64,000 bases of DNA. Source: a virus. The notes beneath the pieces are model-generated. The model had not been told where the DNA came from. It did no database searches and saw nothing but the letters and a program-made list of their open reading frames with translations. The DNA lies in IMG/VR virus record IMGVR_UViG_3300045738_002037, positions 92,697 through 156,696 of that record, one strand, 5' to 3'. Below are positions 12,501 to 52,578 of the stretch, piece by piece (within the stretch, counting starts at the first letter, position 1; every line of letters begins with the position of its first letter). The translations under genes were made by a program, and so were the position numbers.

Positions 12501-15500
12501 TTCTGACCATCAATATAGTCTTCTGAAATTCCCTGTATCCGTGAATGCCCATAATTATCAATAACACAGAAATCACTTGGCATCCATTTAATAGATTTAG
12601 GATCTAAATCATGGCCAGTCAGAAATCCATCTGAACCATCAACATCGTGCTGAAATGCAGCTTCAAGTGCTAAAAGCGGTTCATAATCAAACACTGTGCC
12701 GTCAATGTCGCCGGAATACGCTCCCGGCGGAAGGTTATCTTCAAGAGATCTAACCAATAAACCTTTGGTGTTAGTGTTATCCTTGCCAGGTCCAGAGCCT
12801 TCTTCTATCTTTTTAACTGCTTTTTGCGGGCCAGCGCCATCATAAACAATAACCCCGCCCTCAGCAGTATCATCGGCAAGATAAGCTCGGAATTTTAAAT
12901 CGTATGGAAATATGCCGTCTTGCGTCGACGTTGATTCTTCTTTAAAGCTAATTTTTAATTCTGGGGACCATGGGCTATTTCCCATAGTGTTATAAACTAT
13001 ACTAGCTAAATCGCTAATATATTCATTGTCTGGATCATCAGCAAGATTAAACGGCGAAGTACCGTCAAAATGCTGATGTAACGACGGAGGCACGCCGTTA
13101 ACGCTACCCCATTCCGTATCCGTCCGACTGGGTTGCCGTTTCCTTGCATCAGGGTTAGTATAATGGTCTTTGCCCCATCCCATACTATGGAACGATTTTG
13201 AATTATAAAAACCTGGAGTAAGCAGAGCCTGGTTTCCTGCCGCTTGATCGATCCAAAATAAATTAAAATAATGTAAATTATTCGAATATTTTGATGCCAA
13301 TTCTTTTATCAACGAAGTAACATTAACTTTCACACGTTTTAGGGCATACAGATGGCTCCCCTCGTATTCTTCTCCATCATAGCCATGATGATCTTCATCA
13401 CTTTTTCCAATAACAAATTCAGTAGTACGTTCTCTTTTAGAAATTAATTTGCTGTCATCGCCGGGTTCAACTATAATTCTAAGCCTGGGCGCAAAATCTT
13501 CACCTTTAAGCGAGTGTCGAGAGCCTACAATTGTCCTAAACGCAGCATCTCCATTTAATGTTTCTTCATCTGGCACCCACATATATGACAGAATGGATTT
13601 GCCATCGTCAAGTATTTCTTGAGTGACTTCAGTGACATCGCATTCAAAATTTCGAAATGCTCTTTCAGACCCTGTAAAATTAAAAGTCTTGTAAGCAGTT
13701 GTTCTATTTCTACTGAGAACCGAAACCTCATCGCTCAACGAAGATTCATAAGTGTCAACAAACGGATACGCTTTCACATTAGACCCACTACTCAATTCGC
13801 CATATAATTTGCCATATACATTTTGGTCGCCGCCCTCTATGAATGTTTCATGGTCAGGATCGTAGTCATCTGCGCCATTTAATATTAAAACAGCACTTTT
13901 AATCTTTTTGCCGACCAAATCATCAGAGATTTCTGAACCATGAAACATAAAACCAACTGCTCGCGTTACTAACTGGCCAGAGAAAGCCGTTGGAATTGGG
14001 ATCCCGGAAGCACTAGCGCCTCCATGGGAAGTTACATCAGGATATTTTCCAAATCGCAGTTGCCCATTATCGCCTGGAAAATCCCCAACTTCAATCAACC
14101 CATTGCCAACGCCGTCCATGCGCTGCTCGGCGTCCTGTTTACCAGTGGCTGACTGGTCCAATATTGGATCGACAAAACGAACTTTAAACTCATAGAGATA
14201 AGCGTTCTCTTCCGACCATTCATCAGGTTCATTTGAATCTTCTGCGTACCATTTGCCGTCAAAATCAACCTGCCCAGCATTATTAAGATGAGTATCAATT
14301 GAACCTTGCGTACTATTTTCGGCCAATCGATCAGGCGGCATATACATTATTAATTCTGCAGATTCAATCTCCCTACCGCCGATATCAAATTCGCTATGGA
14401 ATCTAAGACCGACATGTCTGTGTCCACCCATTACACGGGCAACTGAGCCTGATAGCTGTGGGTCCCTAGCCAAAGCATGTTCGTCGTAACCTTTATTGCC
14501 ATGCCCAAATTCTATTGCATCGTTTCTTACAGTAACGATTCCTCGCTGCTGGAAGCCCATGGCAATGGGGATATCGTGCTCGTTCGCTTGCCAATAATTT
14601 TGTGTATAGTAAATAATTTCTTCGGCTGCGTCCTCGGCACGATTCACTTTACATCTAGAGATTGTGTTATTATAACCCTTGCCGGGCAGATGCTCAAAAC
14701 CATGATCGTCAAATGACGCATCTTTAGGAAGCAACACTTCAATATCAGCAACAATTTCTGCCGCGTTAGGATAATACGTATTAACTGTTCGCCAAATTCT
14801 ATCGCCATGGTTTATGATCGCAGAATAACGACGGCCCGAAAGTATGTCGGTCGGATCATATTTGCCTAAAATTTCTGGCCATTCCGATGTACCATTGCCG
14901 ACATTTCCATATGGCGAATTAGCGGTGGCAATACAAAACGGCGATATGGTATTTGTTTGTTCCTGAGTGCGAGCAAGCAAAGAAGTTTTTAAGGTATTCG
15001 CGTCTGGAAATAAAAAATTTCTCGTCGAATGTAAAATAACTGAAACTGTTTGCCCCGCAGCAACAGGAACACCCTTGGGATATAAAGTATTGATTAGATC
15101 TAATGAAACCCATTGGCCATCGCCGGTCACATTCACGTCGATATGGAAAGAAGCTAAACTCGCCCCAGCCGCAGATAGATCATCGCCGTCGATTATCTCC
15201 ACAGACATTGTGCCCGACAGCGATTGCTCGCACGTGGGATCCCATCCAGCGGACCTCGACGTCCCACGCTGCCATAACGAACCTACGTCGGACGCGTGAT
15301 CAGTAGAAATACGTATTGCGTCTGCAAAAACCGGAACTCTCATCTCCGTTTCAGGAAAGACCACCAATCCTTCATGCTGGTACATTATTACTTCAATTGA
15401 CTGACCTTCTTCTACAGTAAGGATACCGTCCGGATTTGGGGTAGAAGCTAAAATTTCCCATGTAGCACTTGTTATCAAAACAAGACCAGGTGGTGGCACA

Positions 15501-18500
15501 CTCCACGGATTGGCGGTTTCATTTAGAGCGGGGTCGTACTCGGATACGGTCTTACCAGATGGCGCTCGAGCTTTAAATGAATTGGGACTGACACTTTGAT
15601 CGACGTATGCATCATAACGACTGCCCACCGGAACATCGTCAGCACTTAGCAATTGATAAGTGAATTTCACGTTGTCATGGCCAGGGACGCTGCCAAGCTG
15701 GTTTCCGTAGCCGCTGCCGCCTCCAGGCATCACAATCGACGGCCATGTGGCAGATATTTGATAATCACCAGCTGGCAGATCACGAAATTTCCAAGTCGCT
15801 GTTAATAGGTCTGGCCCATGTATCGATGGCATATCCTCTGAAGAAAAAGCAATCTCATAGGACCCACCCCAGACTGAGTTTGGATTGCCGCCTTTTCTCC
15901 AATCGACGTCGTCATGCATAATATAGCTCTGATAGCCCCCGCCGTGGGGCATCCTGAGAAATTCTGTCTTCTTTCCTGCGATCCGGGAAGTATAATTCTC
16001 GTCGTAATTGTCAATTATATATGTGTTAACTGTAGGAAGGCGACGCGGGTCAGGGCTTTTTCCATACAAATAAACTTCAAACTTTGAAAAATATCCACTA
16101 TTGTCAAATCTTATTGTCTGACCTATTCTATCCGCGAACCGGCCCGGTAGTGTCGGTTGTGCTACGGAGCTAAAAATAGGAGAATCATTTTGAAGATATG
16201 GAGGATATATTGTCGCTAATGTAGTGTCAGTGTTAAGTTCACTATTCCAAATAATTTGCGGGCTGGACATAGCCCCATAAGGATGCGTTTGTTCCTCAAT
16301 AAGCTGCTTTTGATCTATCACAGAAGTTGAAATATTATCTAATAAGGTTAATTCAAGCGGTATGTGCTCACATAATAACAATGTGCCGTTCGAATTAAAT
16401 GAACTATAAACCGACGTCTTGTGGGTATTATATTGTTTAAACGCTAATTTAGCTTTTGGTATATCGTTATCATCATGAACTCTTACTCCAGTCCCAGAAT
16501 TCTTGCTGATTCTTTTAACTGGAACTTTAGTAACAGGGTCTAAACCGGATTCTAAAAAATCACCTGAATATTTGACATCCGGCAGATCCATACTAGGAAT
16601 CGTACCAACATAGTCATATACTGCGCTTTTTAATTGTTTTGGAACAGTCCACTTAGAAGCAGGGCCACCACTAGGAGGGTCATCTGAATCTCCAGACAAC
16701 TGACCGATAAATAGATCACCGCTTGGCCCAAGTGGAATTGGCAACAATGTTTCAGAATCATACGTTCTTGACGTTCCACTATATGACGGATAAGTCACAA
16801 GCACGTCAGACGTCGCTGACAAAGTTTGACCATTTTGATCACGTCTATATCCAACTTCAAATCGTTTTACATATCCTGTTCCATTTACTATATCATTTTT
16901 AATGCGGTCATCATCCGTATCGCCACTAGAATAAGTTTTAGACGATGTATTAAACGACGATCTGGACGAATTCATTCCGACATTATCTAAAATGGTTCTA
17001 TAATCATTAGACTTCATCGCCGTAGAACTGATTAAATCTAAATCACTTTTAACAACCCAATTTGCCGCATCATCATAAGATGTTACAAACGATGCGCCAG
17101 TTATATTAAATGGTCCAGACCCATTGCCGTCATCCCAAATATGAGCATCAAAACTTACATCTGCGTCATATCCGCCACTAGAATCCGGTACAGGAGAACC
17201 GGGGCGCGGAACAAGATAATCATTTGAAATTAATTCATTGTCTTCTAAATAAACCGCCACTCCATCTTTAGCGCCAGCCCCATCTTTCTTATACACAAAA
17301 AATAGCCCAGTAAAATTCGTGTATGGCGGTTGTCCTTGTGTGGAACCAGTAAGAGCAGTCGGCGGTTCATTTTTAGCCCATGGTCTGGTGTTTCGACCAG
17401 GGACAACAATATTGCCTAACACAGAAACCTTGGGGCCTTCCGTGCCAGCGCCAATCACTTGGAATACTTGTTGCTGAGGATTATAAATGATGGAATTAGT
17501 ACATATAGCACTATTTTCTTTACCAACATAACCATTGGCAATATTAAAAGGATCTCTTTTATTAAAATGGGCAAATACACATTTTTTAATTTGAACTTTG
17601 TTTACACCAGAACCCATCGATAAACCAGCAGATTGACCTTGCGCGCCCTCTAAACCTTCCGCAATTATAGAATTTTGAATTGTTACATAGCTAACTTGCC
17701 CTTCTATATTGGCACTATAGTCCTTTGGTTCTATATCAACTATTTCATCAACACCCCACGACAACGAACAATGATCAATCAAAATATTTTTAAGAACATT
17801 GCCCCAAGGCTTATTGTGCCTATACTTAATTTGCAAAGCATCAGAAGATTCACCATTGGTCTTAGTTGACCGATGCCAGCCGGATCTTATAGCAATATGT
17901 CTTAATAAAACATGGGGCGCTTCAATTGCTATAGACGCGCCGATTACAGTTATTCCAGGTTCAGGTGCAGTCTCGCCAGCAACAACGCAATTTGGTTCCG
18001 TAACGACCATGTTTAACATACGCTTATAAACGTTAGGCTGAGGATTAATCCTAGTGCTTTTTCTAAGATCAATAATACCGCCTACTTCAAACACAATAAT
18101 TCTTTCACCAGGAGTCGATAAGGCATGGTGAAGAGTTATGTCGCCTTCTACATAATCCGGATCAGTATCATCTGCCGCTAGAGAATTAACTTTTATGACT
18201 TTAACACTATCAGAATCTGAATTATCTGGCGAAAATTCACCGCTAATAACTAGTTCTGCGTCTGAAAAGCGGATTTCATTATCACTAATATTGCCGCCAC
18301 TGTATCCAAATAATAATATATGATGGTCTATTGTGTCCGGCGCACTACCGCTAAATATTACTTTCCCAGGAGCAATAGCAGTCATCAATACGTTAAAAAA
18401 TTCAAATTCACTAGGCCCAACTGGCGATAAACCATCCACACCGCCAGCGTGCTCAATGCTTCCTTCTTTAAGATTGCCCGCTTGACCAAAGCCGTCATAC

Positions 18501-19363
18501 GGACTTACATGCCCAATGGTGCCTTTATCTTCTGTTAAATCCTTATTATAAGTGATATTTAAATAGGCAGCGAATATCCCAGATGAATAAGCAGGATTTT
18601 GGTCTTCTCGTAAATCTTGAACAAACGCGCGAATATAATATTCTTCGCCCACGTTTATATTAGATATAGGATTACCACTTGCGTCAGTAGCGGCAATCCT
18701 AATCTGCACTAATTCATGGCCAGACAACGGCGACACCACATTGCCAACAATAGGTACAATGTCTGGCATTGACATTGAAGACGGCACTTCAGGAACAGCG
18801 ACTGCTTCAACAACACCAGGGACCAATGGCTGATCCTCTGGAACAAGCTGCACCAACCTCTTTACATTATTATAATATTCTGTGCCAATAATAGAAACTA
18901 AATTGCCGGATAACACAGTCCCAAATGTACCGCCACTACTGTGATCCCATGCAAACAATTCCCCGCCGGGAGTTATATAATAATATTGCCTACCTATATT
19001 TCGACTATCATAGAACGGCGCTCCAGTAGAATTATATTCTACGAACCAATTGCCGGTTATCCATTTTTCATTTTCGCCACCAAAATTAAGATAATGATTA
19101 GCACTACCACTTAAAGCAAATTCGAATACAGAAGCATCAAAATCACCCAACACTAATACAGAATTCGCTTGCTTTCCTTGCGGCGAATCAGCTGGAAAAG
19201 CTTCGATCTCTTTTTGCGTAACACTGATTAATTCGACAAACGTGGACTGGCCTATTTCATCATTAAAACCAACATTGTCCCACACAGAATTGTCGGAACT
19301 TGGTTGCGCATTATTGCCGCTCTGACCAACGGCTTTCCGCACTGCATCAAATCCATCAGACAT
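3506..19363 (-). CDS. giant (~5,285 aa) multidomain protein, probable virion fibre/adhesin: two pectate-lyase-like beta-helices, YWTD beta-propeller repeats, Golvesin-like and cohesin-like modules, poly-Thr linkers
   Basis: Uninterrupted 15.9-kb ORF; ATG 19363 preferred over TTG 19381. PL1-like motifs occur twice (RIIVFEVGGxID, VAGETAPxPGIT, ILIDHCSLSWG, QNxIIxEGL). Also KMYWT/KMYWL/HMYWT repeats, ATWKFRDLPAGDYQISATWP and Thr-run linkers. Confidence 0.8.
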   Translation of the reverse strand: MSDGFDAVRKAVGQSGNNAQPSSDNSVWDNVGFNDEIGQSTFVELISVTQKEIEAFPADSPQGKQANSVLVLGDFDASVFEFALSGSANHYLNFGGENEKWITGNWFVEYNSTGAPFYDSRNIGRQYYYITPGGELFAWDHSSGGTFGTVLSGNLVSIIGTEYYNNVKRLVQLVPEDQPLVPGVVEAVAVPEVPSSMSMPDIVPIVGNVVSPLSGHELVQIRIAATDASGNPISNINVGEEYYIRAFVQDLREDQNPAYSSGIFAAYLNITYNKDLTEDKGTIGHVSPYDGFGQAGNLKEGSIEHAGGVDGLSPVGPSEFEFFNVLMTAIAPGKVIFSGSAPDTIDHHILLFGYSGGNISDNEIRFSDAELVISGEFSPDNSDSDSVKVIKVNSLAADDTDPDYVEGDITLHHALSTPGERIIVFEVGGIIDLRKSTRINPQPNVYKRMLNMVVTEPNCVVAGETAPEPGITVIGASIAIEAPHVLLRHIAIRSGWHRSTKTNGESSDALQIKYRHNKPWGNVLKNILIDHCSLSWGVDEIVDIEPKDYSANIEGQVSYVTIQNSIIAEGLEGAQGQSAGLSMGSGVNKVQIKKCVFAHFNKRDPFNIANGYVGKENSAICTNSIIYNPQQQVFQVIGAGTEGPKVSVLGNIVVPGRNTRPWAKNEPPTALTGSTQGQPPYTNFTGLFFVYKKDGAGAKDGVAVYLEDNELISNDYLVPRPGSPVPDSSGGYDADVSFDAHIWDDGNGSGPFNITGASFVTSYDDAANWVVKSDLDLISSTAMKSNDYRTILDNVGMNSSRSSFNTSSKTYSSGDTDDDRIKNDIVNGTGYVKRFEVGYRRDQNGQTLSATSDVLVTYPSYSGTSRTYDSETLLPIPLGPSGDLFIGQLSGDSDDPPSGGPASKWTVPKQLKSAVYDYVGTIPSMDLPDVKYSGDFLESGLDPVTKVPVKRISKNSGTGVRVHDDNDIPKAKLAFKQYNTHKTSVYSSFNSNGTLLLCEHIPLELTLLDNISTSVIDQKQLIEEQTHPYGAMSSPQIIWNSELNTDTTLATIYPPYLQNDSPIFSSVAQPTLPGRFADRIGQTIRFDNSGYFSKFEVYLYGKSPDPRRLPTVNTYIIDNYDENYTSRIAGKKTEFLRMPHGGGYQSYIMHDDVDWRKGGNPNSVWGGSYEIAFSSEDMPSIHGPDLLTATWKFRDLPAGDYQISATWPSIVMPGGGSGYGNQLGSVPGHDNVKFTYQLLSADDVPVGSRYDAYVDQSVSPNSFKARAPSGKTVSEYDPALNETANPWSVPPPGLVLITSATWEILASTPNPDGILTVEEGQSIEVIMYQHEGLVVFPETEMRVPVFADAIRISTDHASDVGSLWQRGTSRSAGWDPTCEQSLSGTMSVEIIDGDDLSAAGASLASFHIDVNVTGDGQWVSLDLINTLYPKGVPVAAGQTVSVILHSTRNFLFPDANTLKTSLLARTQEQTNTISPFCIATANSPYGNVGNGTSEWPEILGKYDPTDILSGRRYSAIINHGDRIWRTVNTYYPNAAEIVADIEVLLPKDASFDDHGFEHLPGKGYNNTISRCKVNRAEDAAEEIIYYTQNYWQANEHDIPIAMGFQQRGIVTVRNDAIEFGHGNKGYDEHALARDPQLSGSVARVMGGHRHVGLRFHSEFDIGGREIESAELIMYMPPDRLAENSTQGSIDTHLNNAGQVDFDGKWYAEDSNEPDEWSEENAYLYEFKVRFVDPILDQSATGKQDAEQRMDGVGNGLIEVGDFPGDNGQLRFGKYPDVTSHGGASASGIPIPTAFSGQLVTRAVGFMFHGSEISDDLVGKKIKSAVLILNGADDYDPDHETFIEGGDQNVYGKLYGELSSGSNVKAYPFVDTYESSLSDEVSVLSRNRTTAYKTFNFTGSERAFRNFECDVTEVTQEILDDGKSILSYMWVPDEETLNGDAAFRTIVGSRHSLKGEDFAPRLRIIVEPGDDSKLISKRERTTEFVIGKSDEDHHGYDGEEYEGSHLYALKRVKVNVTSLIKELASKYSNNLHYFNLFWIDQAAGNQALLTPGFYNSKSFHSMGWGKDHYTNPDARKRQPSRTDTEWGSVNGVPPSLHQHFDGTSPFNLADDPDNEYISDLASIVYNTMGNSPWSPELKISFKEESTSTQDGIFPYDLKFRAYLADDTAEGGVIVYDGAGPQKAVKKIEEGSGPGKDNTNTKGLLVRSLEDNLPPGAYSGDIDGTVFDYEPLLALEAAFQHDVDGSDGFLTGHDLDPKSIKWMPSDFCVIDNYGHSRIQGISEDYIDGQNLTVGIDANDRRILKVIKLDTDGETPVKKRKRFPFYILNCASSVPVHKTVVLDNGESVERSYMAVIGTPYGSCDTVGGLRCDAAGGSTGSNDTWTDNVTNRPVTAHGAYNGDLWLYIINLNSILESTTSDYGEEVIAAFNLSGVNEREIYESYYNHPAFATSFITGIGGQDTGLWPTELFASVSDPGTIHVRQDIVTVDGTNYFVGPDEESLQFSQDGRHVLVKYAGVDVQGKSRDIWRMFDVGDFAYKATNPSWSRPFADDSRKPSVDRKPNVLVGQNEIQRFTVSWSNTSNASFRIFKRYKNHPDRTAIIPASVFRSAGGLTGNDRQNNYSSSKFEKYMERQFNNYSPAGLNYHRSTTDGNRVWAENPDACVVRFVSNVKARGKPETYRRSVGSKIVERGWPGRPDVYTVVFDVEWSGTKGNTPPAGTNQIIHYLAAYDRLRTVFGSRPARYMEPTGRVEIIQEGTYCNPHIWLNRAESKAFGYNCEPGQPRRTLIPLVAAVVAGVTVVDNLVGPIYRPGTSGNAVADYKDYGIRPHNFSYLDTGLLDGRGTDQGGHLLTDRGATRGVIPLNQISALSFAYGQKFLDITTAAPDQFLAIASDSWADVTIADSYDCTGLVRTTTTTTTTAVPDITVQKLYYVSNSDNNGLPNTIRRWPPERLELGKNKWLDAPNDEILVSDQDGATDIAIDNINQKMYWTIATSVQNSSIPNPAGAVPSVGKIMRADLDGTNVEDITPPGGRSINPHGIALDVVRGKMYWLEDHVDDSAARGEVRRANLDGSGEQLLTTTDPPLQSSKSLTLEEVPNYFTSKSAPTDNIISDIKTYNLGSSIESIVYSGALRLITGSRGSAKLTFPASVDLTNILVENVQSGPKALFSTGTQLSPLGYTYTATKTTFFPFKPEPNYHFAAVESLFYGIQDSTGSQLVGKQSWMPVNKVSEVVVMLDRQWLVQDIYRPPRSPVIGQYNTRLRYHIYKGYCSDAALAIAKRQMTAAAFRTYKRDCQNRCIRNGQYYYPSQSPCSFNNNHALDKYIADSGYFGFDIDNQKFLRNLHPVCERRPHDAPAYDSIGVVDRVPYPPYTSADTASGETRKHDVYEGTILRYFGAPVARDPVKDGPGVFDYSYGDPGYEAYRKSHSFAPNMTGSQTKVFSWPIPASIDLLFIDPWGNTPLSSDHISGLKDWLALGHKRLVILGGHHSDFANHKTGSAYHDLVQQLDVGITVKNVHVGASSNWRAKRSSGHPLVDGGASRLEHLGLYRPSRLALDLENGHMYWTEYATADADGPYPGRLRRANLSGSSKVILRDGLTGIDNVRGIDLDVKNQHIYLSTVETIPPRTNDNRYPEHGTAKILKLDFDGSDVSTVGSRLPRGVLFNYHYSLGPQSPNDIILDLDNQYVYVANHMAYERTADIAKGDHIQRFGFGGDGSVILSLQVCPPATATGVALAKVVMPAFDVQLQDADLLRHIAGGVIPLYDSKDDIYPNGRIGRIVVLNCTKSSEFEDRVSYEINPRKGFWSCPDNWAALSNPTSVKFESQQYEAKIYDITGLQNPIRLRSGGRRDFSTLHAAYAFVAYGPDREYNADNTINITGGLYRDEIVAYNVEDPNVGMVRLTHTRTNAWTKGVPGSGGKPAVVLPEPEGNISTEFSDVSDVNVLKVTTLSPTGPGSLYEALTTQGPRIIVFEVGGVIDFRNADELQGESAGRDVILPINIDIPNCVVAGETAPDPGITIIGTALLVRASNVLIRNIYIRHGDHDKASTGIEATGQGVALGVIAHGPDPTIENILIDHCSLSWGLQACAKIQPSTVAGSTCRYITFQNCIISEGLSSPTGAPGLLMSAADAETGSNHILVKRCLYAHIGVAGPFDNTSARAQGQMANSAICVNSIIYNPQFHAASVSGAGLSGPQLAMLGNIVVPGLFTKAYRKNRLSNLEGGNEYSHDGTDFTGLLYVRSQSAETIAIYLNDNELIKNAHLTGDGGFDYDVSIDARRSDPPWNGISGTPVTSFVNSYAATGLNDWLNKDTDLDLITSAVLKVDNYSILLNDVGANTSRSSFNGVAYSGGDSIDDRIKNELLNLTGGILLGLEQGSETKAGWEDAVGGYPTYDLVSRIYDPSTLDPVPIGPNGNHIVGKDGYDPSTDSFADPFYAKPNLIVSSDGTKLVYNSTWTGEGGTHVNAPYGPYVPGYHLLIDLVEAQLVGPVDGTTTTTTTMPPDSNSRNGIGVLETPVAEFSGQGDYLPFVCEVVNVILKPHADFFRDSPTETCSPAGSCLINPIVTTGSAADHNNDERMTVPGLVWSGLSGYNTLSNGTVVNNGIGPFYPNIIDPDDGKFVQSWGQIFAERELIIGFNGVDMNPGDNSGPHVDVNWNEVIAINKATLTLKFDNIQQQQFDLLPSDGIGTEITLYKDIHNYSPYGEPCAIDQFEISKVYPSPCRNPNHSFFAAEHFRRTISRSSDINPRQLPSTWAEDRDVRVTHDNKIDVCPEVFDGSCDRLNGLFVGIRRLSWSRASVGGANNIIAAVETIPLSDGGDILGEVVLIADTTFLMYESFSRGGQTGLSGLANNRENQQFMVNLYPECNPTVGASASVVNVVGYKSFAENDRNYPINMLRVFGSRNLFPAAQGLYVKGGHVGPISGTDSNGRDLAFAKLVMIDPLTVLSPDDVQNIKNWMLLGEGRRVVVVYEYEVADTSRARAILEALGTKMRPDPQDRVTNAGTWQARPISGHPIIDGIDPYDANDLAGRSIRLCDKISTVFYGGIVPIDFNNGNARPLLLGGIVCPNYPDCEDNPEAQDSAPRYNGTKLLSMSLELELEICDEIVPHTTTTSSTTTEEPDISTNASDGGVILGNISGSGFGSSCLPEALQTEICLDFVPPPPYDYPEKYVPDPKDFEEVIVEPCALVLTANKSVRLELERDLFDPNRTYEGSLATVKLLTRAKGYDVNKYAPYLRVGNRLRATSYDTVVATGMSIILVDKSMDVSRREGLILDRITSREILPDRMRWPDQT

Positions 19364-19416
19364 AAATATACCGTCTTTCAATAGTTTAAAATATAATGCT
19401 ACTAATAGATTTGAAT

Positions 19417-19876: not shown

Positions 19877-20707
19877 ATGCTTACATTAAAAATTTCCGAC
19901 TCAATAACTATCGGCAATAATGAATTAGCAATAATAACCGGGCCGTGTGTCATCGAATCTAGAGACATGGTGCTGACAATAGCTGAAAAAATAAAAGAAA
20001 TCAGCGAAGAATTGTCTATTCCAATAATATTTAAAGCATCATTTGACAAGGCCAATAGAAGCTCTATAAAATCCTATAGAGGGCCAGGAATAGATGATGG
20101 ACTAAAAATATTAGACGAAGTTAAAAGCCAATTCGGTCTATCTGTAACAACTGATATCCACGAGCCATCGCAAGCTGCTAAAACAGCAGAAGTATGTGAT
20201 ATTTTACAAATACCAGCCTTTTTATGCAGACAAACAGACCTGTTAGCAGCTGCCGCTAGCACTGGCAAAACAATAAATGTTAAAAAAGGTCAATTTATGG
20301 CACCATGGGATATGAGCAACGTTATTAACAAATTATTAGAATGTAACAATCCTAAAATTATGCTTACAGAAAGAGGCACGACATTCGGATACGGTAGACT
20401 AGTAAATGATATGCGGTCAATACCGTTAATGCGCAAATTTGGATACCCAGTAGTGTTTGACGCAACACATAGCGTACAGCTTCCAGGTACTGGCGGCGAT
20501 AAAACTGAAGGCGAAAGGCATATGGTTCCGACACTTGCTAAAGCAGCTATCGCATGTGGAATTGATGCTTTGTTTCTTGAAACCCACCCAGACCCAGATA
20601 ATGCTAAAAGCGATGGACCAAACATGATCGAATTGCACAAACTACGCAATTTACTCACCGATTGCCTAAAAATACATAAAGTAATCAGGGAATGCCGCGA
20701 AAGATAA
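19877..20707 (+). CDS. kdsA: KDO8P synthase (2-dehydro-3-deoxyphosphooctonate aldolase)
   Basis: GPCVIES, KASFDKANRSS, QIPAFLCRQTDLL, VKKGQF, ERGTTFGY, FDATHSVQ, ETHPDPDNAKSDG: all KdsA signatures; full length. Confidence 0.97.
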   Translation: MLTLKISDSITIGNNELAIITGPCVIESRDMVLTIAEKIKEISEELSIPIIFKASFDKANRSSIKSYRGPGIDDGLKILDEVKSQFGLSVTTDIHEPSQAAKTAEVCDILQIPAFLCRQTDLLAAAASTGKTINVKKGQFMAPWDMSNVINKLLECNNPKIMLTERGTTFGYGRLVNDMRSIPLMRKFGYPVVFDATHSVQLPGTGGDKTEGERHMVPTLAKAAIACGIDALFLETHPDPDNAKSDGPNMIELHKLRNLLTDCLKIHKVIRECRER

Positions 20708-20737: not shown

Positions 20738-21244
20738 TCAGAATAACAATTTCTTTATTTCCGCCATTCTACTATCCATCCACGCTAATGGATTAGAATA
20801 TTTAACTAGACCAACATTGCTAAGATCAGCAATGTTTATAGATTTAGACCAATCTTCATCATCCATCAACATTGATGCTTCATCACTTTTTATAGAATAA
20901 TAAACAACTCTTGAAATATGATTCGCAGCAATATTTAACATGCATGACGAGCATGGCCTACCAGTAACGTATATCGTGGACCTGCTCAGATCACCATAAG
21001 AATGCCTAATCGCATTGGCTTCGGCATGAACAATATATTTATATTTTGCGGGCCGCGACCAATCTATTTTATCATCTGGTATTTGTTCAGGCGGGCCATT
21101 ATAACCCCACCCTCTGGGCCTATTGTCTCTGTCTATTATAATAGAGCCACATTGTGTATGCGGGTCTTTGCTTTTAGATGCTACCCAAAAAGCAAGCCCC
21201 ATATAAAATGAATCCCTGTCGGGAACCAACCTAAATTCAACCAT
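20738..21244 (-). CDS. dCMP deaminase family protein
   Basis: SKDPHTQCG, GYNGPP, HAEANAI and PCSSC zinc motifs. Confidence 0.92.
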   Translation of the reverse strand: MVEFRLVPDRDSFYMGLAFWVASKSKDPHTQCGSIIIDRDNRPRGWGYNGPPEQIPDDKIDWSRPAKYKYIVHAEANAIRHSYGDLSRSTIYVTGRPCSSCMLNIAANHISRVVYYSIKSDEASMLMDDEDWSKSINIADLSNVGLVKYSNPLAWMDSRMAEIKKLLF

Positions 21245-21247
21245 TGC

Positions 21248-21676
21248 TTATTTATCTGCCCACTTTTTAACCATGCGCAATATACGGCCTTGTTCTTTTT
21301 TTGCCGCTGTAGATGAATCGAACAAATAAGATTCCGGCATCCATTCCTCTTCATTGCTAATATAAAAGAATTCACCTGTGTCTTCGCTCCTAGCAACATC
21401 GCAAATCTCGAACTGTTCTACTTCAAGCTTGGAAGTTAAAAACATAACTATTGCTTGAAAATCTATGTGATTTAATTTAGGCAAATGTGCCCTTGAATTC
21501 CATACATTTTTAGCTATTCTTCTGTCATAGAAAACTTTAGGATGATGCTCAAGCATCCACTCATCGCCAACAGGCACCATCACATTAGTAGCACCAACCG
21601 GTCTTAATGTTACCCACCAAACCGATTCGCCTACTTTATATCTTGATAATTCTAGTACTGATCTTATCGGGGGCAT
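21248..21676 (-). CDS. hypothetical protein
   Basis: 142-aa ORF in the minus-strand operon, 3 bp from the deaminase. Confidence 0.7.
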   Translation of the reverse strand: MPPIRSVLELSRYKVGESVWWVTLRPVGATNVMVPVGDEWMLEHHPKVFYDRRIAKNVWNSRAHLPKLNHIDFQAIVMFLTSKLEVEQFEICDVARSEDTGEFFYISNEEEWMPESYLFDSSTAAKKEQGRILRMVKKWADK

Positions 21677-21953: not shown

Positions 21954-22739
21954 TCATTCTGCTATTTTTAAAAATTGTTCATAACTTTCTTTAAAAATAT
22001 CCTGTTTATTCAGTCCATCAGAAATTCTTTTTCCAAGACCAAACTCCATAAAGTACCAACCATTATAGCCAATTCCTTTAGAATCATCAATGGTTTGTTT
22101 TATCATAGAGTCGCCAACGCCAACAACTTTAAACCCATATCCTATTTTATAGTCCCTAACATCAATCGCTGCGACGAATTTTCTAATATTTTTCCAATAT
22201 TTATCAAAGGGATTTATGTTTCTTTTAGTAATTAATTGCACTGGGTCATATAATAGCCGCCAGTGCCTATTATTGCCCAACAATTCTAATATAATTGGAA
22301 TATCATGGCTATATGGAAAATCATCGGTTATTTCAAACAATGGAATAATACCAGCTTTAGCGCATTCGGAGGCAATCAACGCCATCCAATCATTTATAAT
22401 GTCTTTATTTCTACTGGCGTTTTTTATTCCACCGAATATTCTAACATAATTAGCTTTGAAATATCTTGTAATAGATAAAGTTCTATCAATTGTTTCTGAA
22501 GATATATTTCCTAAATCATTACAATCAATAAGACCGAGGTTAGACGCAACCATCGGGACAGATAAGGAATACTTATCAATTATTCCTTTAAGCTTTTGAC
22601 ACGTAGAATCGCTAAGATCGCAAATATTGCCGGTCCAAACTTGGCGAATTACAACATGTTTAATATCACATTCCTGCAAAGTTTGACATGCTACATCTGG
22701 GGTATCGCCTGCGTCATTTAAATAGGCTGCTATTTTCAT
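21954..22739 (-). CDS. xylose-isomerase-like (AP_endonuc_2) TIM-barrel protein, divergent
   Basis: YVRIFG, PLFEI, LLYDPVQ, IDVRDYK, GVGD and GYNGWYFME match the sugar-phosphate isomerase/epimerase pattern; overlaps the purZ-like stop. Confidence 0.75.
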   Translation of the reverse strand: MKIAAYLNDAGDTPDVACQTLQECDIKHVVIRQVWTGNICDLSDSTCQKLKGIIDKYSLSVPMVASNLGLIDCNDLGNISSETIDRTLSITRYFKANYVRIFGGIKNASRNKDIINDWMALIASECAKAGIIPLFEITDDFPYSHDIPIILELLGNNRHWRLLYDPVQLITKRNINPFDKYWKNIRKFVAAIDVRDYKIGYGFKVVGVGDSMIKQTIDDSKGIGYNGWYFMEFGLGKRISDGLNKQDIFKESYEQFLKIAE

Positions 22740-23851
22740 AAATACGCCACATGGTCAATTTGTGGCCCAGTGCCCACAATAGTCACTGGCAACAACACCA
22801 AATCTTCGATCATTTCGATGAATTCTTGAACTTTTGCCGGTAATTTTCCGTAATCGTTGGTCCCATAACATGACCAATCAATATAATTAGCAAAATTTAA
22901 CGCGATCTTTGTCGCACCATTTACTACAACAGCTTCTTGTAATTGAATTTTAGAAAGCGAAAACACTCGGCGTAACCTTTTGGTCACTGTGGTAAGTTCA
23001 CCTTTCATTACTTCTGGAGGCGCGCCTGCGGTTTCAGCAACTTCGGCCCATGTGATCTCTTGATGGTCATCATAACAATCACCCGAATACCCAACAGTTT
23101 CTCCATTTTCCACCACATTGCCGACCCTAATGGGATATGGCCTAATTACTAAATATACGTCTCCAACTTTATAAGGCGAAACGCCCATATCGGCTAAATT
23201 GTAAACAGCAGTTGTGCCTCTGCTAGTACAATGGGGATAGTGGGATCCGTGATTTATATCTAACGAAAACCCCTGCGCGCCTTCATGCAATATCGTGTTG
23301 CCATCATTCATTAGCTTATTTAAATGTGTTGGCATGTAATAATCTTTAACGTTTGGAACATATGGCAATAATTCTTTATAGTCTCTAGCAAGCTTCAGTC
23401 CCGGTTTTCTCATTGCTTTATCTGCTAAAAAGGCACCACAGCCTTGCATCGTGCTAGCAACACTTTTCGTTCCAGTTTTTAAATTCTCCTCTGCTTCTTT
23501 ATGCTCATGCGTGATCACACCGGCTCTGGGGTGTATCACAGTATTTTCAGCCACATCGCATTCATCTATTTCTTTTAGCATCTGGTCAATGGTGAACGCG
23601 GCTGAAGGCCCAACTAGTATAGATGGGCTATATTCTCCATCGGTCCATTTTTTTAAAATGGCAGCGGAGGGCAGCGCTTTAGCCACAAACGCATCGCCGT
23701 TGATATTGATCGCCGTATGGCCAGCATTGGCCATGTTCGTGGTAGAAAGGACTTCTGGTTTATACCGGTCAGCCAACGCAGAAGTAATTAAGCCCTTCCC
23801 ACAGCTTCCCCATTGCCCATCTGTTATAATATTAAATTTCCCTGCTTGCAT
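22736..23851 (-). CDS. purZ: PurZ-type adenylosuccinate-synthetase homologue (putative N6-succino-2-amino-dAMP synthase)
   Basis: DGQWGSCGKG has Ser at the PurA catalytic Asp position. Also NAGHT, EGAQGFSL, YPHCTSR, YPIRVG, ELTTVTKRLRRVFS, and LNFANY (NFxN in place of the PurA [NT]KxD GTP motif). 371 aa. Confidence 0.8.
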   Translation of the reverse strand: MQAGKFNIITDGQWGSCGKGLITSALADRYKPEVLSTTNMANAGHTAININGDAFVAKALPSAAILKKWTDGEYSPSILVGPSAAFTIDQMLKEIDECDVAENTVIHPRAGVITHEHKEAEENLKTGTKSVASTMQGCGAFLADKAMRKPGLKLARDYKELLPYVPNVKDYYMPTHLNKLMNDGNTILHEGAQGFSLDINHGSHYPHCTSRGTTAVYNLADMGVSPYKVGDVYLVIRPYPIRVGNVVENGETVGYSGDCYDDHQEITWAEVAETAGAPPEVMKGELTTVTKRLRRVFSLSKIQLQEAVVVNGATKIALNFANYIDWSCYGTNDYGKLPAKVQEFIEMIEDLVLLPVTIVGTGPQIDHVAYL

Positions 23852-23912: not shown

Positions 23913-24281
23913 TTATCTAAGAGAAGAAGAAACTTGGACATCATATCCATCGTCTTCCCAATTTTTATGTTGCGCTTCTTTATTTAATTTGCCAACTGAA
24001 GACGTAGATTTGTCCAATTGACTAATAGCGTCGGGCAAAGGCATAACTTTGACCACTGCGTCAATTACATCATCTTCTTCCATTTCAATAATAGCCACAA
24101 GATTTTTCTCTTGTAACTTAATTTTATATTTTTGGGCTATTAATATAGCACCTAATTCATCAGCTAATTTAGACATTTGTACTGAGATATAGCGACGTTG
24201 CGAATCAAGCCATTCATCAGATCTGGTTAAAAGATCGGCATCTTCGCCTATTTCATGAATCATGCTTAATATGTTCATCAA
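23913..24281 (-). CDS. hypothetical protein
   Basis: 122-aa ORF in the co-directional run. Confidence 0.6.
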   Translation of the reverse strand: MMNILSMIHEIGEDADLLTRSDEWLDSQRRYISVQMSKLADELGAILIAQKYKIKLQEKNLVAIIEMEEDDVIDAVVKVMPLPDAISQLDKSTSSVGKLNKEAQHKNWEDDGYDVQVSSSLR

Positions 24282-24579
24282 TTTTTACCCAAGTGTCAGG
24301 AACCCAAGTCATCATCCCATGAAGTTCAATTCTAACTAGTTTGTGCTTCCTATCACGAACTATCGCAATTTCATCATGCCAAGGATGTTCTTTATTATTT
24401 ATTTTTACAATTGTGCCCTCTTCTATTTCTGGAATTTCTACTTTTAAATGTTTTGAACCACCTATTTCCACATGTTCAATAATTATATTTACTAATTCTC
24501 CACAAATTTTGCATCTATTGGCATCATCTTTATTTATTATGTTACTTGTTCCACATTTCTGGCAAGTTATAGTATTCAA
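24253..24579 (-). CDS. zinc-ribbon + KOW/SH3-like protein
   Basis: CQKC...CKIC, then IEEGTIVKI..HPWHDEIAIV..VRIELHG. Confidence 0.6.
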   Translation of the reverse strand: MNTITCQKCGTSNIINKDDANRCKICGELVNIIIEHVEIGGSKHLKVEIPEIEEGTIVKINNKEHPWHDEIAIVRDRKHKLVRIELHGMMTWVPDTWVKIDEHIKHDS

Positions 24580-25265
24580 CTTAAAATCTCTTTTAATTGA
24601 TCAGGCTGTCTTTGCACTTCTTTAATTATGTTTTTAATCTGAGCTAAACTAACAGCATATTTATAAGCATCTTTACATAACATTATAGATTTTACATCTT
24701 TTATATTACCACTAACTTTTATCGGCACACTTATAATTTCTTTTATTTTGCTAATCATCTCATTGTGTATATCTGGATTAGCTTTACTAACTTGCAATTT
24801 TAATTGATGATTTGTTCGTAAACAACTTGGAGACGGCACAAATTTCATTGCTTCGCAGATATCTGTAATATTTTCATCAGAATGGTGCATGCCAAGAACA
24901 AATCTTATCTCAACAGTTGGCGAAATATGGTTTCTAACAAAATCAGTTAAAACAGACATTTCGTTTTGACAATCCGCTTGAGACCTGCCCCCGGATAATA
25001 AAAACTCAAATCCATCACAACTTAAAGAATCTATGGTCAATCCTCGTAATTTAGTATCACCATAGCATTCCCCTTTAGGCCAGTCAACCGGAGTCAATAT
25101 TTTAAATTTACCCTGCCATTTGATCCTTTGCAACAAAGCATCAGCAGATATTTCTGGGTGAACAATTATAGACGGAATCGCATATTTCACGGCTAACTCT
25201 GCAACATCCGCTAATTCATTAGACTGCATAACATCTATTTCAATATTATTGAACAAAGCATTCAT
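24576..25265 (-). CDS. DeoC (deoxyribose-phosphate aldolase)-like TIM barrel with catalytic Lys apparently replaced
   Basis: By-eye alignment to DeoC: IIVHP~VCVNP, TPVDWPKG~TVVGFPLG, DGFEFL~DEIDMV, CLRTNHQ~FVKTSTG, IKVSGNIKD~VKASGGIRT. Confidence 0.6.
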   Translation of the reverse strand: MNALFNNIEIDVMQSNELADVAELAVKYAIPSIIVHPEISADALLQRIKWQGKFKILTPVDWPKGECYGDTKLRGLTIDSLSCDGFEFLLSGGRSQADCQNEMSVLTDFVRNHISPTVEIRFVLGMHHSDENITDICEAMKFVPSPSCLRTNHQLKLQVSKANPDIHNEMISKIKEIISVPIKVSGNIKDVKSIMLCKDAYKYAVSLAQIKNIIKEVQRQPDQLKEILS

Positions 25266-25279
25266 GTTACACCTTTATA

Positions 25280-25675
25280 TCACTTAGAAGATAATTCTAT
25301 AACTTTTTTGATAGCTTCGGAACTATCACAAGTTTTAAATACTATAGGATTATTTTCATCAGTCAAATAATGAAATGATGTGGGTACATAGTCCTCTTCT
25401 TCCATTAAAATAACTATTGGTATATTTTTAGCATATGCATAGCCAAATTCAAAGTGTGATCCTTTTCTTGCTGGCGTAACCATTAAGATACAGTCAGAAT
25501 CATCCACCCCCCTAACCTCTGCCAAAGCGATATTCATCAATTCACTTTCGTCATCACAAAAACCGTGGAGCGTCCAATCATAAGTTATAGTAACGCCATG
25601 TTCTATTAACTGATCTCTCAGTTGGCGAACTCTATCTTTATTATTAAGGCTAGACGCTATATAAACGTTTTTCAT
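25280..25675 (-). CDS. nucleoside 2-deoxyribosyltransferase / nucleotide N-glycosidase family protein
   Basis: VYIASS, GVDDSDCIL, GSHFEFGYAYAKNIPIVIL (catalytic Glu motif of the NDT/DNPH1 family). Confidence 0.85.
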   Translation of the reverse strand: MKNVYIASSLNNKDRVRQLRDQLIEHGVTITYDWTLHGFCDDESELMNIALAEVRGVDDSDCILMVTPARKGSHFEFGYAYAKNIPIVILMEEEDYVPTSFHYLTDENNPIVFKTCDSSEAIKKVIELSSK

Positions 25676-29732: not shown

Positions 29733-30271
29733 GTGCCATAGCCGGATTTAGTAAAGAATTGATTAGCTTGGCCCATCATTAATCCTTTTGCTCTATGCGG
29801 GTATTCTATATTATTTCCCGTAGAACCAGTTAAATTAACATAGCCATTAATATGGTTAGACAAAACTCTAATTATAAACGCTACAACTCTTCTAGGAGTA
29901 GATTGTCTTCTAGCGCCACCATAACCATGCTGAGGCGATTCTATTATACCATTATTGATTTGCCTAGACAAATCAATTAAATCATCATGATGTGACTCAC
30001 CAAGATACATTCGATGGTTGCTGAGAGCAAATAAATTCCAACCAAGAATTGCCTTGCCAACAGCGGGGTCAAGCTCTACAACATGCGGTTTAATCTCTAT
30101 TTTATTTGCCAATTGAGGAATCATCATTGGCAAATCTTGCATTAAAGAAGGATGTAACATGCGATCGAAACTCTCGCTAAAGCCCTTCTCCATAAAATAA
30201 TGTATTAATAGCCTACGAACAACCTCTGAATTCGTAGCGTGCTTAATATTGTCAACCGTGCGCGAGTCCAT
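29729..30271 (-). CDS. hypothetical protein
   Basis: 180 aa; AGGAG SD upstream. Confidence 0.7.
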   Translation of the reverse strand: MDSRTVDNIKHATNSEVVRRLLIHYFMEKGFSESFDRMLHPSLMQDLPMMIPQLANKIEIKPHVVELDPAVGKAILGWNLFALSNHRMYLGESHHDDLIDLSRQINNGIIESPQHGYGGARRQSTPRRVVAFIIRVLSNHINGYVNLTGSTGNNIEYPHRAKGLMMGQANQFFTKSGYGT

Positions 30272-47334: not shown

Positions 47335-47340
47335 ATCCAT

Positions 47341-50450: not shown

Positions 50451-51146
50451 ATGAACAATATAATCATTAGATATGTTACGCCAGAAGCGATAATATTTGA
50501 ATTAGAAAAACCCCATGATATTTACTTGCTATGCGAAATCAATGGAGTTTTTAAAATTTACGATGATAAATTAAATAAAATAATTACCCCAAATGCAAAC
50601 GAATGGGTTAAATCTCATTCTAACAGCTCATTAGAATTACTTTTAAATTTAGCAAGAACATTTCGAGATGGAATGCAGTGTTCTTATAATGGTGGCGATA
50701 TTTTAGAATATCTAGTGTTATTTAGCATATTAATTAAAAACTCTATATTCCATAGCGAATTGGCAAGTAAATATGCAAGCGTTTATTTTATAGAAATATG
50801 CGACCCAGATGATGTGCCAGAAGTAATTGATGGAATCAGAAATAATTGGGATGAATTGCTAGATAAATTTGGCGAAAAAGAACTGTTAAACAATCTTCAT
50901 AGATGGGTACGATTTTGCAATTATAACTGCCCGGACAATACTATAATTTTTGAAAAATTCGTGAATAGATTGGGCGAAGGTGTTTCGCCGCCGTCTTATC
51001 CAAACACAGCTGAACACGATGAAAAATTGGCAAGTGATGTTTTAAAAAGTGTTGGCAAAGATTTAAAAGAATATAAAAATGTTCCCAATGAAATACTAGA
51101 ATTAGCGCATGAATTTAAAGCCAAAAGATTACAAAGGACCACTTGA
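50451..51146 (+). CDS. hypothetical protein
   Basis: 231 aa; overlaps the dnaE-N start. Confidence 0.65.
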   Translation: MNNIIIRYVTPEAIIFELEKPHDIYLLCEINGVFKIYDDKLNKIITPNANEWVKSHSNSSLELLLNLARTFRDGMQCSYNGGDILEYLVLFSILIKNSIFHSELASKYASVYFIEICDPDDVPEVIDGIRNNWDELLDKFGEKELLNNLHRWVRFCNYNCPDNTIIFEKFVNRLGEGVSPPSYPNTAEHDEKLASDVLKSVGKDLKEYKNVPNEILELAHEFKAKRLQRTT

Positions 51147-52578
51147 GTTCTGTCATCTTCACAATCACACCCTTTTTTCAGTTCTTGATGGGGTTGCTTC
51201 GCCCGAGCAATATGCTGAGCAATGTTATAAACGTGGCTATCCGGCAATGAGCGCCACAGAACATGGGCATATGGCATCTGTTCCAGATATGTATTTGGCA
51301 TTCCAGAAATATGGGGTTAAGTACATTCCGGGGTGTGAAATTTATTTTAATGATTATGAATATGGCACTAATTTTGAAAATGTAGAAAATCGTCAAAATT
51401 TTATTAAAAATGATGGTAAAATTAGACAGCTTAGAATAGATAACCCCTATTTATACGAACGATATGCACGAAACCGCCATTTAACAATATTAGCAAAAAA
51501 TCAAATTGGATTTGAAAATTTATTAAAACTGACAACTCAAGCACACAATGATCAATACGGCGCGGGGCGAACAAAATTTCCAAGAATTGGCTTTGAAAGA
51601 CTTTGCAAATTCAAAGAAGGATTAATAATATTATCAGGATGTTTAAACGGGCCAGTGGCTCATGAACTTAGACTAAAGCAAATTAAATCATTCGGAAAAG
51701 ACGAAGAAGGAAATAGAACATCCGAAATAGTGTGGGACAGCGATGAAGATCATTGGGGCGAAGTTGGTAGATTTAAAGCCGCTGCTAAATGGGTAAAAGC
51801 ATTCCACGACGAATTTGGCGAGGATTATTTCATAGAACTGCAAATGCCTGGGCTTCCAGAATTGCATGATGACGAAGTATTTCAAAAACTCATAGCGTTG
51901 GCCGATCATTATAAAATAAAGACAATTTTGGCGAATGATTGCCATTATTTAAACAGAGAAGATTTTATTTTACAAAAAATTATGATGGCTGTAGTTCAAG
52001 ACACCACCATAGATGACCCAAATTTGTTTCATGTGAACAGCGACGAACAATTCATGAAAACAAGAGCTGAATTGTGGGCGATGTTTAAAAACAATGGTTA
52101 CAGCAAAGGCATGGGCGACAGTGTGTTTGAAAACATGTGTGATAATACTCTATTAATAGCTGACAAATGCGAAGCATTTTCTATTGACACATCCCCTAAA
52201 ATTCCAGAAGTTGATGATGCTGTTGTAAAACTAAAAAGCATAGTGGCTAAAAAACTCTATAAATTGGGACTGCATAAATCCACTGAAAAGTTTTTTATCG
52301 ACGGCAAGGAAGTCACTTACGTTGAACAAGCGTCTATTGAATTAAAAAGATTCATTGACAAAGGATTTGCAAGTTACTTTTTGATTACAAGAGAACTGGT
52401 GCAATATGGAAAAAAGAGAGGCTGGCCGTTTAGTCCAAGAGGAAGCGCCGGTGGATCGTTAGTTTGTTATTTATTAGATATACATGTTATTGATCCGATG
52501 AAGTGGGGGCTGTCTTTTGATAGATTTTTATCGCCATCTCGCGGTGGATATATGCTAGATATTTCTATGCCAGCTTAA
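51109..52578 (+). CDS. dnaE: DNA polymerase III alpha, N-terminal part only (PHP domain + start of palm)
   Basis: HLHNHTLFSVLDG, TEHG, GCEIY, HLTILAKN, LSGCLNG, NDCHY, GFASYFLI, RGSAGGSLVCYLL, FDRFL; ends at ISMPA-stop after 489 aa. Confidence 0.9.
   Translation: MNLKPKDYKGPLEFCHLHNHTLFSVLDGVASPEQYAEQCYKRGYPAMSATEHGHMASVPDMYLAFQKYGVKYIPGCEIYFNDYEYGTNFENVENRQNFIKNDGKIRQLRIDNPYLYERYARNRHLTILAKNQIGFENLLKLTTQAHNDQYGAGRTKFPRIGFERLCKFKEGLIILSGCLNGPVAHELRLKQIKSFGKDEEGNRTSEIVWDSDEDHWGEVGRFKAAAKWVKAFHDEFGEDYFIELQMPGLPELHDDEVFQKLIALADHYKIKTILANDCHYLNREDFILQKIMMAVVQDTTIDDPNLFHVNSDEQFMKTRAELWAMFKNNGYSKGMGDSVFENMCDNTLLIADKCEAFSIDTSPKIPEVDDAVVKLKSIVAKKLYKLGLHKSTEKFFIDGKEVTYVEQASIELKRFIDKGFASYFLITRELVQYGKKRGWPFSPRGSAGGSLVCYLLDIHVIDPMKWGLSFDRFLSPSRGGYMLDISMPA

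Follow-up and report, generated by a model that had tools for sequence, protein, structure and literature searches.

We analysed a 64,000-nucleotide stretch of viral DNA (hereafter, the window), which is positions 92697-156696 of the 156,696-bp IMG/VR record IMGVR_UViG_3300045738_002037 (G000), and found in it a gene whose predicted product is PurZ, the synthetase that leads to 2-aminoadenine (Z) in the DNA of certain phages. In the reading that we prefer, with a probability of about 0.62, PurZ feeds the synthesis of dZTP, the phage replisome inserts Z, and three co-operonic genes clear a competing deoxynucleoside monophosphate (dNMP). Judged from sequence, synthesis of dZ by the phage is likely and the presence of some Z in its DNA is probable, while near-complete substitution of A by Z is unlikely. 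What we infer from the comparisons set out here is the enzyme's activity, the occurrence of Z in the virion DNA and the part played by the three co-operonic genes.

CheckV puts the completeness of the record at 43%, so the whole genome should be roughly 360 kb, and of the related records that carry purZ, one of 408 kb is 100% complete and one of 354 kb is 98% complete. The record encodes major head, portal, large terminase and baseplate-wedge proteins of the T4 type, together with a ribonucleotide reductase. A sequence-only reading of the window had proposed a large, T4-like phage with a C-family polymerase, and it was right on each count: the record has 156.7 kb at that completeness and the complete relatives 354-408 kb, the structural genes are T4-like, and DnaE is encoded (as two genes), with a small family-A-like polymerase besides. 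Near-identical DNA pieces of the locus are present in seawater and marine metagenomes of other studies, so the phage is marine and recurrent. Among the sequencing runs listed with these pieces, none was of RNA. At window positions 22065-22631, a related strain was seen in another seawater metagenome (run X3), with 79 transitions against 2 transversions over the pieces compared.

The open reading frame (ORF) of purZ is intact; it starts with ATG and encodes 371 amino acids (aa) with no internal stop. The product matches the adenylosuccinate synthetase family in Pfam with 137 bits and falls in phrog_1211 of PHROGs at 5e-63, which is annotated as '2-aminooxy adenylosuccinate synthetase'. The sequence-only reading had named a PurZ-type synthetase on the strength of three motifs, and all three are encoded on the minus strand at 22736..23851: the P-loop GSCGKG (G15-S16-C17-G18-K19-G20), the middle motif ELTTVTKRLRRVFS (E285 to S298, spelled E285-LTTVTKRLRRVF-S298) and the donor motif LNFANY (L318 to Y323). 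The presence of all three far exceeds chance expectation.

Homologues are numerous, with 1,559 database proteins matching at E<=1e-20 and 444 of the 50%-identity representatives matching at E<=1e-30. More than 120 protein clusters are 58-89% identical to the window protein, and 12 of these are on contigs of >100 kb, with a maximum of 408 kb. Every one of the closest GenBank phage matches is a PurZ (33-37% identity), and a megablast search of the locus against GenBank phages gave no match. Of the best 150 among the 50%-identity representatives, about 140 could be aligned, and every one of these has Ser at the catalytic position, as do 138 of 139 related rows. In two homologues, P0122 (792 aa) and P0133 (1197 aa), the sequence is interrupted by one or two inteins that contain LAGLIDADG homing endonucleases, and several further representatives of 730-800 aa probably bear inteins too. 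The inteins in some homologues of this wider Ser-type set hint at an important gene.

Class of the synthetase

Whole-sequence scores were ambiguous (see below), and the class was therefore decided by residues and phylogeny. These agree: by both, the predicted product is PurZ, as the sequence-only reading had proposed, and neither PurA nor PurZ0. PurZ entered the motif alignment from four sources (S-2L, a Vibrio phage of the PhiVC8 type, an Acinetobacter phage and Bacillus phage 140) and PurZ0 from two (Ghobes and an Arthrobacter phage), beside five short PurA of archaea and the PurA of E. coli and of one Bacillota member (Table 1). The likeness to PhiVC8 PurZ that the sequence-only reading had noted was borne out, since the PhiVC8-type enzyme of Vibrio phage QH has GSTGKG, ELTTVTKKIRRVFS and LNFCNY in the identical alignment columns.

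Table 1. Motifs of the window protein and of three related enzyme types.
Protein	P-loop	Middle motif	Donor motif
Window protein	GSCGKG	TTVTKRLRRVFS	LNFANY
PhiVC8-type PurZ	GSTGKG	TTVTKKIRRVFS	LNFCNY
PurZ0	GSEAKG		L[ST][FM][AL]DQ
Archaeal PurA	GDEGKG	GTVTGRRRR	T[KG][LI]D

A metagenome association study describes twelve residues that discriminate PurZ from PurA, and in PhiVC8 S14 and T262 serve dGMP's 2-amino group while F295 and Y298 serve the adenine of ATP (bioRxiv 10.1101/2025.10.22.683976). In our alignment, 9 of the 12 residues of the window protein are identical to those of PhiVC8 PurZ: Ser16, Thr287, Phe320 and Tyr323 (S14, T262, F295 and Y298 of PhiVC8) and Trp268, Tyr260, Pro240, Pro150 and Ser298 (W252, Y244, P233, P144 and S273). 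Thus, the catalytic Asp13 of PurA is replaced by Ser16 (S14 of VpPurZ), and the donor pocket is of the ATP type, with NKxD gone and Phe320 and Tyr323 in its place. Trp14 is an aromatic residue where PhiVC8 PurZ has Phe. The window protein is without the PurA-like xxxD donor motif of PurZ0 and lies outside the PurZ0 clade.

We built a FastTree phylogeny of 154 rows, a quick IQ-TREE, and a careful IQ-TREE of 65 rows with the LG+C20+F+G4 mixture model; the bootstrap correlation of the careful tree reached 0.985, short of fully settling, and its support values are therefore rough. All three trees place the window protein inside a crown clade with the PurZ of S-2L, the PhiVC8-type phage, the Acinetobacter phage and the Bacillus phage (100/99), a clade that holds every characterised ATP-type PurZ. 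The Ser-type proteins as a group are split from the five archaeal PurA (100/99), so that the clustering with archaeal PurA that had been named as refuting was not seen. Among these Ser-type proteins, the earliest branches are PurZ0 and a few basal lineages from metagenomes. Within the crown clade, the window protein belongs to a subclade of 21 rows (99/98) with other large-phage proteins and a protein of the cultured 168-kb Flavobacterium myovirus MaF61.

The characterised PurZ of PhiVC8, S-2L and Acinetobacter phage SH-Ab 15497 (PDB 6FM1, 7ODX) are 34-36% identical to the window protein and share its crown clade (100/99), the P-loop Ser, TTVTK..RRVF with its Thr making room for the 2-amino group, NFxxY where PurA has NKxD, and a similar insert before TTVT. 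The archaeal short PurA (P. horikoshii, PDB 2D7U; PRK04293) share the length class, the overall fold and a C-terminal segment with a GTGP motif, but have their own three motifs and are separated from the window protein by the 100/99 branch. The closest GenBank phage protein, a 'PurA' of the 55-kb siphovirus Bacillus phage vB_BpsS-140 (MH884512.1), is 37.5% identical, of the Ser type with LNFANY, and in the same crown clade, but its gene has a neighbourhood unlike that in the window. This phage has no gene of the DatZ type; a weak NDT-like ORF (29790-30005, 20.3 bits) lies 7 kb from its purZ, a pairing as in the jumbo phages. The only cultured member that we found in the subclade (99/98), ORF141 of MaF61, is of the Ser type with F and Y at the ATP positions, but it has 447 aa, a long branch and 27% identity to the window protein. 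NDT-like and DatZ-like genes were not found in MaF61, and the paper describing this phage is silent on Z and on the PurZ-like gene.

The gene string around purZ and the search for helper genes

The purZ gene stands in a string of genes on one strand, in the order 326 aa, NDT-like 131 aa, 229 aa, 108 aa, 122 aa, purZ, TIM barrel 261 aa and 142 aa (Table 2). The order is kept in up to 8 related contigs, both complete genomes among them. In the sequence, the purZ stop codon overlaps the start of the TIM-barrel gene as ATGA, which suggests translational coupling. Scans of the locus for promoters and terminators gave matches at chance level.

Table 2. Coordinates of purZ, its neighbours and the DnaE gene in the window.
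Feature	Coordinates	Strand	Basis
purZ-clade gene, 371 aa, predicted N6-succino-2-amino-2'-deoxyadenylate synthase	22736..23851	-	PF00709 E 8.4e-40; residues matching PhiVC8; crown PurZ clade 100/99
TIM-barrel protein, 261 aa, sugar-phosphate epimerase/isomerase fold	21954..22739	-	AlphaFold2 (AF2) model; syntenic in 8 related contigs
Conserved 142-aa protein, downstream in the purZ gene string	21248..21676	-	syntenic in 10 related contigs
122-aa protein, conserved, next upstream of purZ	23913..24281	-	syntenic in 7 related contigs
108-aa protein, N-terminal CxxC...CxxC	24253..24579	-	ORF and translation; syntenic in 5 contigs
229-aa protein, 2-deoxyribose-5-phosphate aldolase (DERA/DeoC) fold	24576..25265	-	structure models; syntenic in 9 contigs
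NDT-superfamily protein, 131 aa, predicted (deoxy)nucleoside-5'-monophosphate N-glycosidase	25280..25675	-	PF05014; syntenic in 6 contigs
dCMP deaminase, 168 aa, adjoining the module in the window	20738..21244	-	PF00383 1e-14, phrog_174 4e-31
N-terminal half of two-gene DnaE: PHP domain and first 99 positions of the Pol III alpha domain	51109..52578	+	PF02811 2.5e-31, PF07733 3.7e-22

Three of these neighbours could be assigned by family or fold. The 131-aa protein matches PF05014 (nucleoside deoxyribosyltransferase, NDT) with 38.1 bits, over the Pfam cut-off, and its catalytic set Tyr5, Asp61 and Glu76 is invariant. The best solved relatives of its profile are the CMP N-glycosidases BlsM and MilB (E 9e-7), of the branch that hydrolyses monophosphates. 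The 229-aa protein resembles DERA in structure: its ESM Atlas model matches the DeoC family with a template-modelling (TM) score of 0.81, and nearly all of the listed top Foldseek matches of its AF2 model (predicted local distance difference test score, pLDDT, 83.6) are DERAs, with TM 0.74-0.78 and E 1e-10. Its family profile had no match among PDB sequences, and no family was assigned at the sequence level. It has an invariant Lys183 on strand 7 and an invariant Lys156 in a low-confidence loop. The AF2 model of the 261-aa TIM barrel (pLDDT 83.8) has as best folds the L-xylulose-5-P 3-epimerase UlaE and tagatose 3-epimerases (TM 0.75). From these assignments, all three neighbours would therefore deal with nucleotide sugar phosphate.

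We also considered the TIM barrel as an endonuclease IV and rejected this, as AP_endonuc_2 gave a sub-threshold 26.3 bits and epimerase/isomerase folds were preferred. Likewise, the 122-aa protein was considered as a MazG-like pyrophosphatase and rejected, with no family match and, in our reading of alignment A2, no conserved acidic EExxE-type motifs. The 142-aa protein had no Pfam, PDB-sequence profile or Atlas assignment. The dCMP deaminase is not syntenic in the relatives; only one of them has a nearby homologue, at a different position.

Z-DNA has so far been documented in sipho- and podoviruses of roughly 38-55 kb, and the known Z phages carry PurZ or PurZ0 with DatZ/MazZ or DutZ/DmtZ and mostly a Z-selective family-A polymerase. 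DatZ is an HD/YfbR-like dATP triphosphohydrolase, and MazZ/DUF550 and DUF5664 are (d)GTP pyrophosphohydrolases. We chose Pfam models by what the reference helper proteins hit and then ran six-frame searches; the record is incomplete, so these were repeated in related records, 11 for DatZ and DUF550 and 9 for the other families, both complete ones included. As a positive control, the DUF550 model PF04447 was detected in S-2L and the Acinetobacter phage. The six-frame search of the record found no gene for YfbR-like/DatZ (PF12917), DUF550 (PF04447), DUF5664 (PF18909), dUTPase, generic HD (PF01966) or MazG (PF03819). Searches of the whole record with phmmer and tblastn using reference DatZ, MazZ, DUF5664-DUF550, DutZ, DmtZ and DpoZ gave nothing significant. 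The sequence-only reading had proposed a search for datZ, mazZ and DUF550, and neither the record nor its complete relatives contain them.

Among the relatives, genes of the dUTPase family are present in 7 of 9, with two in each complete genome (G007 and G015); one type of paralogue has an insertion and the other an N-terminal extension, and for neither does the sequence decide between a DutZ-like enzyme and an ordinary dUTPase. In one relative, an ORF at 772-1902 of locus L177 (G016:C1:129166-132486) is a dihydrofolate reductase fused to the insertion-bearing paralogue, which suggests a thymidylate path for that type. A gene for an adenylosuccinate lyase of its own was found in one relative only (G006). 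Among the relatives searched, a DatZ-type gene occurs only in G013, a 48-kb contig whose PurZ is 54% identical to the window protein and in the same subclade. There the DatZ-type gene (PF12917, 84.6 bits) lies 3 kb upstream of purZ and a weak MazG-like ORF lies downstream, and the NDT, DERA-fold and TIM-barrel genes and the other jumbo-phage neighbours are absent. The helper set of G013 and the jumbo-phage module thus form a complementary pattern.

Because the defining helper genes were searched for and not found, the system in the window is, by sequence, not a purZ-mazZ-datZ Z-cluster, and it also differs from PurZ0/DutZ/DmtZ. Phages of the PhiVC8/S-2L/SH-Ab 15497 type are sipho- or podoviruses of 38-45 kb with purZ beside datZ and mazZ/DUF550 and mostly a PolA DpoZ, whereas the window phage, at about 360 kb, has T4-like structural genes, a two-gene DnaE and another operon without those helpers. 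The PurZ0/DutZ/DmtZ system is alike in having an NDT-superfamily partner of the monophosphate-N-glycosidase type, in the two dUTPase-family genes of the complete relatives, and in the comparable logic by which dA would be cleared as mono- or triphosphate (PMC12884076). It differs in the motifs and clade of the synthetase and in an NDT-family enzyme with which the NDT-like protein of the window can be aligned only weakly; the window phage is also without DUF5664 but has added DERA-fold and epimerase-fold proteins. What appears to be new is thus the combination, in jumbo phages whose structural genes are T4-like, of PurZ with a replicase of the Pol III type and with another set of conserved partner genes. 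Within the paper library searched, no paper was found that links jumbo or huge phages to PurZ, aminoadenine or diaminopurine.

A proposed route to Z in the phage DNA and its rivals

From what is known of the family in PhiVC8 and S-2L, PurZ would convert dGMP, aspartate and ATP or dATP to dSMP (N6-succino-2-amino-2'-deoxyadenylate), and the adenylosuccinate lyase (PurB) and nucleotide kinases of the host would carry dSMP on to dZTP. The replisome, with its two-gene DnaE and the small family-A-like polymerase, would then insert Z opposite T. The C-terminal DnaE half (finger/HhH) is a separate gene of 897 aa in the record outside the window (G000:85313-88006, minus strand). The two halves, which might be joined by a split intein or act as two subunits, are 57 kb apart in the record and about 2 kb apart in the relatives G006, G007 and G010. 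The family-A-like gene (G000:75727-76923, minus strand; 398 aa) is likewise outside the window. Its product aligns with no more than the C-terminal third of the family-A DNA polymerase model and, at 33.4 bits, stays under the cut-off (34.3). The gene is kept in 6 of 8 relatives; it lies in a replication cluster beside a gp32-like single-stranded DNA-binding protein, a flap endonuclease (FEN) and a DnaB-like helicase. Since it is also encoded, the replication machinery is more than DnaE alone. The chromosomal replicase of E. coli is the DnaE-type Pol III. When the S-2L Z-cluster was expressed alone in E. coli, Z entered chromosomal and plasmid DNA (PMC8342488), and a C-family polymerase is therefore probably able to use dZTP.

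The trio of NDT-type N-glycosidase, DERA-fold protein and epimerase-fold protein would destroy the competing dNMP, most likely dAMP, and dispose of the deoxyribose-5-phosphate. A dNMP-destroying route is the most economical reading of the trio, and dAMP is suggested as its target by analogy with DmtZ, an NDT-family enzyme and dR5P transferase that hydrolyses dAMP in PurZ0 phages and structurally resembles the BlsM/MilB branch (PMC12884076). The trio would thus be functionally DmtZ-like and stand in for DatZ. Candidates for the step from dATP to dAMP would be the second dUTPase-family paralogue of the complete relatives and the use of dATP by PurZ itself; S-2L PurZ accepts dATP besides ATP, and PurZ can act as a dATPase (PMC8342488).

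Several points weigh against this route to Z-DNA. The window protein scores 220 bits with the NCBIfam PurZ model NF038379, missing its curated cut-off of 300, and slightly more, 228 bits against a cut-off of 368, with the NCBI archaeal short-PurA model (PRK04293). Among PDB structures, P. horikoshii PurA (159 bits) comes before PhiVC8 PurZ (144) and S-2L PurZ (139), and for the last 85 residues the archaeal enzyme gives the best alignment. Our guess for the PurZ-model shortfall is that NF038379 was built mainly from small-phage enzymes. DatZ, DUF550/MazZ, DUF5664, HD and MazG are missing both from the record and from its two complete relatives (G007, G015), and in E. coli incomplete Z-clusters gave lower substitution (PMC8342488). 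The match of the NDT-like protein to DmtZ in hhalign is weak (E 0.0034, probability 9%), with the catalytic Glu aligned and WTLHG shared. In the 229-aa protein, an invariant Arg150 seems to occupy the strand of the Schiff-base lysine (strand 6), in our own reading of alignment and model. The ribonucleotide reductase of the phage should keep supplying dADP and dATP, and no dATP-to-dAMP enzyme was identified in the record, so the complete exclusion of A is not assured and substitution may be partial. More doubtful still than near-complete substitution is the boldest form of the proposal, in which a large clade of marine jumbo phages, spread worldwide, with T4-like structural genes, a fully or largely Z genome, a two-gene DnaE replicase and exclusion of A at the monophosphate level by the NDT, DERA-fold and epimerase-fold proteins would represent a third independent ZTGC solution.

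If PurZ works but the genome is not appreciably Z, the enzyme could use up dGMP and dATP and so reshape the pool of purine deoxynucleotides in the infected cell, or act in counter-defence, with the sugar-phosphate genes recycling deoxyribose. The missing helpers, the ribonucleotide reductase and the dATPase activity known of PurZ (PMC8342488) all fit such a role. Still, we consider it improbable: all characterised members of the PurZ clade serve Z-DNA synthesis (PMC12884076), purZ is kept at 58-89% identity across its protein clusters, the inteins hint at its importance, and a member of its own subclade (G013) pairs it with DatZ.

A poorer prospect is that the PurZ product is an intermediate which the TIM barrel or the small proteins process further, to a final base or metabolite other than plain 2-aminoadenine. 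The coupling of purZ to an epimerase/isomerase-fold protein and the three conserved uncharacterised proteins that flank it, none of which occur in described Z-clusters, would suit this idea, but the coupled proteins have sugar-phosphate folds rather than base-modifying ones, and no purine-acting transferase was found in the operon.

It is very unlikely that the enzyme is a GTP-dependent one of the PurZ0 type, the evolutionary intermediate described in actinophages. PurZ0 phages do have, as here, an NDT-family gene and extra Dut paralogues (PMC12884076), the former being in the operon and the latter in the relatives, but the PurZ0 motifs, read in Ghobes and Sergei, contrast with GSCGKG and with LNFANY and its adenine-stacking Phe and Tyr, and PurZ0 branches outside the crown clade. 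An ordinary adenylosuccinate synthetase of the archaeal short type, serving as an auxiliary metabolic gene that boosts AMP synthesis, is hardly credible in spite of the slightly higher whole-sequence scores and the archaeal-like C terminus, given the Ser in place of the catalytic Asp here and in all alignable best representatives, the loss of the GTP-specifying [NT]KxD, and the 100/99 branch that sets the Ser-type proteins apart from the five archaeal PurA.

Should the preferred reading hold and marine phages of 350-400 kb carry Z, the modification would be common in ocean viromes, Z-DNA and a Pol III-type replicase would be compatible, and Z-DNA may be far more widespread than is known. The helper set would be one not yet described, and would provide new enzymes for making Z-DNA as well as new chemistry of deoxyribose phosphates. 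In sequence data Z is read as A, and the restriction-based and nanopore-based methods used in metagenomics act differently on Z-DNA.

Other genes of the window

Elsewhere in the window, a single ORF of 5,291 aa occupies 3506-19381 on the minus strand. A large sugar-metabolism set is spread over 19877-20707, 43539-44951, 46876-50426, 53321-54301 and 58594-59895, with G000:65361-69241 in addition; it comprises a protein of the KDO-8-P/DAHP-synthase family, several glycosyltransferases, a cytidylyltransferase, a methyltransferase, a PhyH-type dioxygenase fused to glycosyltransferases, an NAD-dependent epimerase/dehydratase and a sulfatase. Close together lie genes for an SbcC/Rad50-like ATPase (30306-32123, minus strand), an XPD/DinG-type helicase (33721-35478, minus strand) and an Mre11-like metallophosphoesterase (35539-36633, plus strand). 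The 596-aa protein encoded at 45113-46903 on the plus strand matches Volactin (PF25216, E 1.4e-40), an actin-fold family described from haloarchaea, over its C-terminal 360 residues.

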